Shown: positions 9,455-9,876 of the stretch, in pieces
Position numbering within the stretch: the stretch's first letter is position 1
Layout: each line of letters begins with the position of its first letter
Source: Escherichia phage CCU7
Strand: one strand, 5' to 3'
Length of the DNA stretch: 64,000 bases
Sequence record: PV806175.1
Position numbers and translations under genes: made by a program
Notes under the pieces: generated by a model
Database searches by the model: none
Told to the model about the DNA's origin: nothing
The model's input: only the letters and a program-made list of their open reading frames with translations

Positions 9455-9480
9455 TGCATTTTTCCTTATGTGATATAGAT

Positions 9481-9488
9481 TATTTATA
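9481..9488 (-). promoter_or_regulatory. late promoter box for gene 24
   Basis: TATTTATA on plus strand about 27 nt upstream of gene 24 start codon. Confidence 0.6.
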
Positions 9489-9494
9489 AAGATT

Positions 9495-9546
9495 GTTTAC
9501 AACGTATTTGGTATGTGATACTATAGACTTATCAACTACAGAGGAG
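9495..9546 (+). promoter_or_regulatory. early-type promoter and leader for ORF 9555
   Basis: GTTTAC, about 18 bp spacer, GATACTAT -10 region, then GAGGAG RBS; leader nearly identical to 46727-46764. Confidence 0.5.
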
Positions 9547-9554
9547 TAAACAAA

Positions 9555-9824
9555 ATGACTAAAGCACGTTTCTTACGAGATACTTTAAAAGTTCTGGAAG
9601 CTGAAGCAGTTAAGTTAGTAGAAAAATACGGTGCAAAAGTTAATGGTAATGCCTTCAACAAAGTATGGATGAAAGTTGATTCTGAAGCTCGAGCTAAAGG
9701 CTATTGGGCCACTGATAAACTTGCATCATTCAAAAACAAAGACGGTTCTCCAGCATATGTCCAAGAAGGTATGCCTAATTGGCAAAATATTTTGAAAACT
9801 TACATCGAAATTGCACAGAAATAA
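9555..9824 (+). CDS. hypothetical protein (89 aa), moron between head genes
   Basis: Plus-strand ORF with GAGGAG RBS and early-type promoter, opposite to flanking late genes 24 and 23. Confidence 0.55.
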   Translation: MTKARFLRDTLKVLEAEAVKLVEKYGAKVNGNAFNKVWMKVDSEARAKGYWATDKLASFKNKDGSPAYVQEGMPNWQNILKTYIEIAQK

Positions 9825-9852
9825 AACCAAAAATGGGAGACCGAAGTCTCCC
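9821..9852 (-). terminator. rho-independent terminator after gene 23
   Basis: Hairpin GGGAGAC-CGAA-GTCTCCC followed on minus strand by ATTTTTGGTTTT. Confidence 0.7.
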
Positions 9853-9876
9853 AAAATAAGATTTAATCAATTAAGA

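Follow-up and report, generated by a model that had tools for sequence, protein, structure and literature searches.

A long-resident early-type unit antisense between head genes 24 and 23 of Mosigviruses, and the likely exchange of its cargo through leader and terminator sequences

In this work we describe a small gene that lies antisense between head genes 24 and 23 of a T4-type phage, within a window of 64,000 nucleotides (the whole stretch of DNA that was analysed). The 89-amino-acid (89-aa) open reading frame (ORF) is a real gene under selection and appears, from comparison with its homologues, to be an old but fast-evolving resident of this position. In the explanation that we consider probable, the 24-23 gap harbours a long-resident and self-contained early unit, the slot that it occupies is exchanged through the promoter/leader on one side and a terminator on the other, and a second copy of its leader, at 46727, arose from a family of related leaders together with the loss of another small ORF (ORF54). 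An earlier note on this DNA had proposed instead that the gene was recently inserted as cargo by way of the leader shared with 46727. The ORF is already present in public annotation and its early promoter has already been predicted in RB69, such that much of what is reported here is known biology.

Positions 9300-10000 of the window are 99.9% identical to Escherichia phage OLB35 in nucleotide comparison and at least 99% identical to approximately 80 deposited genomes, all of them Mosigvirus, and the window thus belongs to a Mosigvirus, an RB69-like T4-type phage. The local gene order is rnlB (plus strand), gene 24 (minus), the 89-aa ORF (plus) and gene 23 (minus), with genes 22 and 21 beyond. 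The plus-strand ORF that the earlier note placed between the minus-strand genes 24 and 23 is present as described, and its coordinates are given together with those of the other features in Table 1.

Table 1. Features of the 24-23 slot and of the frd.3 locus, in window coordinates
Feature	Position	Strand	Basis and details
Gene 24, capsid vertex protein, left flank of slot	8171-9454	-	427-aa ORF; gp24 annotation in PhAPEC2, OLB35 and others
Gene 24 late promoter box TATAAATA	9481-9488	-	Read in sequence; kept in all genera aligned
T4-early-type sigma-70 promoter	9495-9524	+	GTTTAC 9495-9500, TTTACA 9496-9501, 17-nt spacer, TG 9516-9517, TACTAT 9519-9524
Repeat copy 1, extended -10 through codon 3	9515-9564	+	blastn-short and alignments
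Discriminator and short leader	9525-9554	+	Predicted start near 9531; Shine-Dalgarno GAGGAG 9541-9546
89-aa ORF, RB69ORF188c/189c homologue (phrog_6003)	9555-9824	+	ORF with ATG start; phrog_6003 match
Gene 23 intrinsic terminator, right boundary of cargo slot	9824-9853	-	Hairpin 9834-9853, UUCG loop, U-run 9824-9833
Gene 23, major capsid protein, right flank of slot	9877-11445	-	522-aa ORF; annotation in relatives
Early promoter TGTACA-17-TACTAT, here driving frd.3	46706-46734	+	Alignments with LF82-16 and T2
Repeat copy 2, upstream of frd.3	46725-46774	+	blastn-short and alignments
Overlap of homology segments (about 30 nt), ORF54/frd.3 leader recombination junction	46742-46771	+	BLAST segments of the LF82-16 locus; alignment switch point
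frd.3 (75 aa)	46765-46992	+	Pfam PF05798; PhAPEC2 annotation

The 89-aa gene and its control region

The predicted protein (10.1 kDa, basic with a pI of 9.6, hydrophilic) matches the family phrog_6003 over its entire length (E = 2.1e-45, residues 1-89 on profile positions 1-90 of 90), and profile searches returned 20 homologue clusters, all from T4-like phages or metagenomes. These homologues fall into two allele classes, sharing 61-100% versus 30-38% identity with the window protein. Length in the family is kept at 88-93 aa, with invariant residues that include a VNGNAxN motif, W51 and Q70, and dN/dS for the ORF is 0.07-0.14 in those comparisons in which dS is not saturated. An AlphaFold2 model (pLDDT 88.9) consists of two long helices, a beta-hairpin and a C-terminal helix.

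In PhAPEC2 the ORF is annotated as similar to RB69ORF188c, and in the RB69 record itself two frameshifts break the gene up, giving ORF188c and ORF189c. Gene, position and promoter are the same in the two phages, the window region being 98% identical to RB69. The intact 89-aa form is the one found in the window and in most relatives, with the RB69 record split, and shortened versions of 51-64 aa occur in mogra and 310Ecol104PP. Since it is frameshifted or truncated in these three phages, the gene is dispensable; a spurious ORF, as its splitting in RB69 might be taken to indicate, is ruled out by dN/dS and conservation.

While the homology search led to the phrog_6003 family, structure searches returned no informative match in either the PDB or BFVD. 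A sequence profile search of the PDB with the 89-aa protein gave noise only (E of 0.026 or above), Foldseek found no PDB structure matching the model at E <= 0.001, and its search of BFVD recovered only the protein's own family. Winged-helix-like Foldseek matches (ORC2, DnaD) were of low probability with TM of about 0.25 and were set aside as uninformative, and identity with DUF4859 (PF16151) was rejected at 17.9 bits, below the Pfam gathering cut-off of 22.6. No family among the PADLOC defence and anti-defence profiles matched the protein at E up to 1.

Upstream of the ORF, every element of the GTTTAC/-10 early-type promoter and GAGGAG ribosome-binding site that had been read in this sequence earlier was found in place. 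The promoter lies 30 nt 5' of the ATG and in the same orientation, reaches 9/12 with TG in a consensus scan and fits the PST/T4 consensus TTTACW-N17-TAYWAT (quoted in PMC4122927), and so has both the sequence and the placement of a T4-type early promoter. GAGGAG stands 8 nt from the ATG, and the leader RNA is unstructured by fold computation (z = 0.17). On the other strand the gene 24 late box TATAAATA is only 6 nt from GTTTAC, which bears out the back-to-back arrangement of the two promoters, and the positions of the elements taken together support the reading of the earlier note, an early-type unit of transcription that is self-contained and runs antisense to the late head operon. Transcription probably starts near 9531.

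Alignment demonstrates that the block running from the late box through GTTTACA to the TG-extended -10 is kept in Mosigvirus, Dhakavirus, Gaprivervirus and metagenomic relatives. In RB69 the orthologous early promoter is the predicted Pe:109605, with an HMM score of 29.9, and the equivalent of the gene 24 late promoter is the predicted Pl:109573 (Nolan et al. 2006, PMC1524935). At the homologous position upstream of segD, T4 carries TTTACA-17-TATTAT with TG, a 10/12 match. This gene is the one free-standing homing endonuclease gene of T4 that lies antisense between genes 23 and 24; its specific promoter was reported in a 2010 review as not identified, and its early RNA was seen as possible read-through (Edgell et al. 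2010, PMC2988022). The cross-genus alignment supplies T4 segD with a candidate for the promoter that this review called not identifiable. In time-resolved omics of T4, segD RNA is classed as early and SegD protein is detected (PMC9697503 supplements), which by analogy lends indirect support to early activity of the conserved promoter. The 89-aa ORF is accordingly predicted to be expressed early, from its promoter sequence and from the behaviour of T4 segD.

At the other end of the unit, the U-run of the gene 23 terminator overlaps the stop codon of the 89-aa ORF. On the minus strand the terminator folds at -16.8 kcal/mol; the plus strand of 9834-9853 also forms a hairpin, but without a U-run, and because the U-run is present on the minus strand only, the hairpin is assigned to gene 23. 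It is identical in WG01 and LF82-16. A terminator scan and folding found no plus-strand intrinsic terminator after the ORF, and antisense read-through into gene 23 is therefore expected, while an Rfam search returned nothing near a gathering score.

Contents of the 24-23 slot in related phages

Antisense homologues between genes 24 and 23 were identified in Gaprivervirus VR20 and in Dhakaviruses WG01 and 04086, and two metagenomic loci (L012 and L014) carry a homologue in the same antisense position. The metagenomic homologues share 61% (on a 173-kb phage contig) and 70% (on a further contig) identity with the window protein, and across lineages the occupants of this antisense slot are 30-70% identical. 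Between Mosigvirus and Dhakavirus the 89-aa protein retains 33% identity, compared with 84% for gp23 and 69% for gp24. The ORF is thus syntenic in at least three genera and two metagenomic lineages, which argues against a recent cassette insertion via the leader shared with 46727; conservation at this position in relatives, the outcome that the earlier note had named as speaking against its own reading, is largely what the comparison of the gap across genomes returned. The gene may be ancestral and have been lost in T2, or may have been gained and then spread horizontally among coliphage genera; either history is consistent with the gp23 distances, which give no polarity.

Other phages differ in what the slot contains. 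In T4 it is segD that occupies the same slot in the same orientation, behind the homologous promoter. T2, Jiaodavirus 5N and Roskildevirus Cronus have a gap of 80-90 bp (83 bp in T2) that holds the terminator and the late box only, the early promoter being missing together with the cargo. Because the whole unit is absent from an otherwise identical gap, promoter and cargo represent an add-on to the head module. The corresponding gap of Krischvirus contains unrelated sense-strand ORFs.

An exchange of contents could be mapped in LF82-16, a Mosigvirus with a gp24 that is 100% identical to that of the window. Here the allele in the slot is of the Dhaka type (32% identity), and behind it lies a SegD homologue that is 57% identical to T4 SegD. 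By BLAST the two sequences are 99.2% identical up to 9546, share no similarity over 9547-9820 and are 98.1% identical from 9821 onwards, placing one junction at the last G of the Shine-Dalgarno and the other at the stop codon/terminator. The cassette of allele 2 plus segD is found at full length in 38 records, at 97-100% in Mosigviruses and at 89-94% in some Dhakaviruses, and most Dhakaviruses carry the Dhaka-type allele without an endonuclease gene. A search for the direct donor of the LF82-16 cassette gave no exact one, the best Dhakavirus matches being at 94% (UP19 and vB_EcoM_005). Judging from these alignments, the simplest reading of LF82-16 would be an endonuclease-associated introgression that was resolved in two conserved regulatory elements. 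As for the earlier proposal that cargo had been inserted into the structural module, the absence of the unit from the gap in relatives and the occurrence of leader-bounded exchange both support it in part, but the ORF is not a recent insertion by way of the leader shared with 46727.

The repeated leader and the frd.3 locus

The two copies of the repeat are 94% identical over 51 columns with two 1-nt indels (blastn-short in the 64-kb window, E = 1.3e-12), a 30-nt core of it is expected 0 times in 100 shuffles, and in PhAPEC2 the two leader copies share an exact block of 32 nt. A pattern search permitting up to 3 mismatches recovered only the query copy, since the second copy differs by indels, and alignment and blastn-short were therefore used. 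The near-identity of about 40 bp of promoter and leader that had been noted earlier is in this respect genuine, but the block is about 50 bp long, begins at the extended -10 and runs into codon 3, and the -35 hexamers and spacers of the two copies differ. At least 10 related early promoter/leaders are present in the window (at 9495, 42269, 46706, 49566, 50858, 53884, 57094, 60746, 61195 and 63590), among which the pair formed by the leader of the 89-aa ORF (the 188c leader) and that of frd.3 is the closest, with a local alignment score of 43 versus 34-39 for other pairs.

The gene behind the second copy, a 75-aa ORF at 46765, is Frd.3 (Pfam PF05798, E = 3e-38; Frd.3-like in the PhAPEC2 annotation). 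In T4, JS98 and VR26 frd.3 adjoins gene 32; in PhAPEC2 it is missing from this T4/JS98 position, and in Mosigviruses it is located in the e-cluster and not beside gene 32. The e-cluster of LF82-16 and many other Mosigviruses comprises a TGTACA-17-TACTAT promoter, ORF54 (54 aa), a second early promoter and frd.3, with ORF54 present at 99% identity or more in approximately 88 records. Over 47 nt that take in the -10 box, the leader and the first codons, the ORF54 promoter region of LF82-16 is the same as the 188c leader. Neither ORF54 nor the second promoter is present in the window, in OLB35 or in PhAPEC2, and the overlap at which the alignment with LF82-16 switches falls in the Shine-Dalgarno region common to the ORF54 and frd.3 leaders. 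In T2, ORF54 is preceded by an orthologous TGTACA promoter, but the -10 box and the distal leader differ.

These alignments suggest that the promoter at 46706 is that of ORF54 and that the control region of frd.3 in the window is a recombinant hybrid. Because the 46727 copy represents the ORF54 leader fused to frd.3, the duplication marks a rearrangement at the frd.3 locus and not one between genes 24 and 23; what had been taken as the trace of an insertion at 24-23 appears instead to reflect recombination between the ORF54 and frd.3 leaders. An initial model in which frd.3 had captured the 188c leader directly was replaced by the loss of ORF54 after the LF82-16 and T2 loci had been aligned. 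The ORF54 and 188c leaders appear to have been homogenised over about 47 nt within the Mosigvirus lineage, in a direction that could be either way. Parsimony and the orthologous T2 promoter are what favours a loss of ORF54 here over its insertion elsewhere.

Explanations for the unit and its likeness to known systems

According to the explanation that we favour, host sigma-70 RNA polymerase would start transcription from GTTTACA, a 17-nt spacer and TGaTACTAT, producing a leader of about 24 nt that is free of structure and carries a strong GAGGAG site, from which the 89-aa protein would be translated. The unit points away from the late promoter of gene 24 and towards the terminator of gene 23, and as the plus strand has no terminator of its own, the early RNA would run antisense into gene 23 ahead of late transcription. 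The protein itself may act as an early accessory factor that binds a host or competitor target. With the promoter/leader as its left boundary and the gene 23 terminator hairpin as its right, the slot would exchange its cargo by homologous recombination in these sequences, which may account for contents that in relatives range from nothing, through segD or either of two divergent ORF alleles, to allele 2 plus segD. The 46727 copy would be the product of a multi-copy leader family and of homogenisation over about 47 nt, followed by the loss of ORF54 through recombination of its leader with the frd.3 leader, leaving a hybrid control region.

A recent moron, inserted by a mobile promoter/leader cassette of which the 46727 copy is the sister or donor, would fit the lack of the promoter and ORF unit in the T2, Jiaodavirus and Roskildevirus gap, the occurrence of leader-bounded cargo swaps and the cassette shuffling of PeSL (promoter-early stem-loop) type known in other T4-type phages (PMC2839356, PMC4122927). 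We nevertheless judge it improbable, given that at least five lineages have alleles of 30-70% identity in this slot, that the promoter block is conserved to T4, that the 46727 copy is explained by the loss of ORF54 at the frd.3 locus, and that a stem-loop is lacking upstream of either promoter and with it the composite PeSL. The near-identity of the leaders might also be kept by selection for a common post-transcriptional control, either RegB cleavage at GGAG or a translational operator. In T4, RegB targets GGAG in early mRNAs, and many of the early leaders in the window have both the GGAG-containing Shine-Dalgarno GAGGAG and a TATCAA...GAGGAG motif. Selection of this kind seems quite unlikely, however: the identical block takes in two elements that the RNA does not contain, the -10 box and the discriminator, similarity reaches only about 60-85% in other members of the leader family, the orthologous leaders of T2, JS98, L012 and L014 differ, and the mapped junctions attest to actual recombination.

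It is also conceivable that the antisense RNA rather than the protein is selected, by damping leaky or premature late expression or by affecting 3'-end formation of gene 23 mRNA. Read-through is to be expected where the plus strand has no intrinsic terminator, and in T4 the promoter is kept even with a different cargo (segD), yet the protein is under strong purifying selection and has a confident fold, and the promoter is gone wherever the cargo is gone (T2, Jiaodavirus, Roskildevirus). As this joint loss in the empty-slot phages implies that antisense transcription alone is not maintained, we regard a purely RNA-based role as very unlikely. That the ORF lies open by chance within a regulatory spacer is scarcely credible. 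Its shortness, its lack of a known domain and its splitting in the RB69 reference record would speak for this, but its dN/dS is far below 1, the conservation of its family extends across genera and includes invariant residues, its model reaches a pLDDT of 88.9 and its strong Shine-Dalgarno is at optimal spacing.

Returning to the long-resident early unit, one of its closest counterparts outside the phrog_6003 family is T4 segD, with which it has in common the slot, the orientation, the divergent late/early promoter block and the boundary at the gene 23 terminator. They differ in cargo, a GIY-YIG endonuclease in T4 versus an 89-aa helical protein here, where the window is without an endonuclease gene; in some Mosigviruses and Dhakaviruses this ORF is immediately followed by a SegD homologue.

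Modular shuffling in T4-type phages has also been described for cassettes of PeSL and ORFan (Arbiol et al. 2010, PMC2839356; Comeau et al. 2014, PMC4122927). Our locus resembles these in its repeated early promoters before small ORFs, in indel or replacement endpoints that fall within the repeat and in having a few copies within conserved core modules. Many similar copies are present (at least 10 in the window), and replacements or indels between LF82-16 and the window end in the repeated regulatory sequence, with junctions at 9546 and 9821 and at 46742-46771. However, no stem-loop was found on the plus strand upstream of 9495 or 46706; the repeat here is composed of -10 box, leader and Shine-Dalgarno rather than of stem-loop and promoter, and the right-hand homology at the 24-23 slot is the convergent gene 23 terminator. 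Since the architecture of stem-loop plus promoter fails at both loci, the unit is not a PeSL. To the morons of temperate phages it is similar in having its own promoter, in lying within a conserved late operon, in being absent from relatives and in being dispensable. It shows precise presence and absence between conserved neighbours, but of the promoter and terminator expected of a moron it has the promoter only, with no terminator on its own strand, and it further differs in belonging to a virulent phage, in its predicted early lytic expression and in its long residence.

A more far-reaching view would treat the 24-23 gap as an integron-like cargo slot within the late operon that T-even-type phages conserve most, with promoter/leader and terminator as handles, the 89-aa protein as an arms-race effector (e.g. 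in anti-defence or superinfection) and the two deeply diverged allele classes as carried from genus to genus by a homing endonuclease of SegD type that hitch-hikes with them, with the comparison giving T4 segD its promoter; taken as a whole, we think this view possible but unlikely.

Mosigviruses are widely used candidates for therapy and biocontrol, and they carry within their head-gene cluster a conserved and selected protein of predicted early expression, the gene for which is a clean knockout target. Furthermore, the locus provides base-pair-resolved cases of regulatory sequences, namely the leader/Shine-Dalgarno and the convergent terminator, that would serve as recombination handles, and in one case an inter-genus allele replacement appears to have travelled with a homing endonuclease gene. 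Together with frd.3 it neatly illustrates the shuffling of cassettes by way of their leaders. In more than 200 GenBank records of Mosigvirus, Dhakavirus and Gaprivervirus, the ORF is entered as a 'hypothetical protein'.

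Inverted repeat around the -10 box of early promoters

Several early promoters of the window share a common layout, GTTTACA-N6-7-ATAGGACTA-TGTTATAG-TAGTCCTAT, in which the -10 box (TATAGT or TATAAT) lies between the two arms of an inverted repeat that is perfect over about 9 bp. Since the right arm alone would enter the transcript, any function of the repeat would be exerted in the DNA itself, such as the binding of a protein. We know of no description of an inverted repeat bracketing the -10 box of early promoters.

A further promoter, TTTACA-17-TACTAT with TG, lies upstream of an e.8-like ORF and belongs to the TACTAT subtype, as do the promoters of frd.3 and of 188c, the ORF antisense between genes 24 and 23. 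Directly 5' of T4 segD is found TTTACA-17-TATTAT with TG upstream (10/12), a candidate promoter that is homologous to the conserved early promoter in other genera. A 2010 review (PMC2988022) gives the segD promoter as not identifiable, and segD RNA is classed as early in 2022 omics data (PMC9697503).

Early promoters and promoter candidates
Feature	Coordinates	Strand	Sequence
Common layout	42269-42315	+	window
Common layout	49566-49612	+	window
Common layout	50858-50905	+	window
Common layout	61195-61240	+	window
TACTAT subtype, e.8-like ORF	45999-46027	+	window
segD candidate	5254-5282	-	T4 (NC_000866)

Relocation of frd.3 and possible exchange of ORF54

The position of frd.3 was compared between the window (46765-46992), JS98 and PhAPEC2. 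The gene adjoins gene 32 in T4, JS98 and VR26. Mosigviruses lack it beside gene 32 and carry it in the e-cluster, where e.6 and RB69ORF146c/e.8 flank it; it has thus been relocated. For ORF54, a 54-aa ORF upstream of frd.3 in LF82-16, the loci compared were window 46364-46992, in which it is missing, LF82-16 and T2. Its protein is 96-98% identical between Mosigviruses and Tequatroviruses (T2, RB5, PST), and because this far exceeds the similarity that the usual divergence between these genera allows, it suggests that a small ORF54 cassette was exchanged between them recently.

Head-gene neighbours and reference records

Gene 24 is present as two tandem paralogues (capsid vertex proteins I and II) in Dhakavirus, Gaprivervirus, Roskildevirus and a metagenomic relative, and as a single copy in the window and T4. 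In phage 04086 (OR842557 2771-5061), a 223-aa segD-like ORF is left without annotation, and gene 23 is annotated as truncated and overlapped by a plus-strand hypothetical ORF. Six-frame ORF listing recovered an intact 519-aa gene 23, so the truncation and overlapping ORF look like an annotation problem. The RB69 record (NC_004928 5292-5532) carries one +1 and one -1 frameshift in the 188c ORF, with clustered mismatches; these frameshifts split it into ORF188c and ORF189c. Either the laboratory strain truly has a pseudogene here or the old sequence contains errors.
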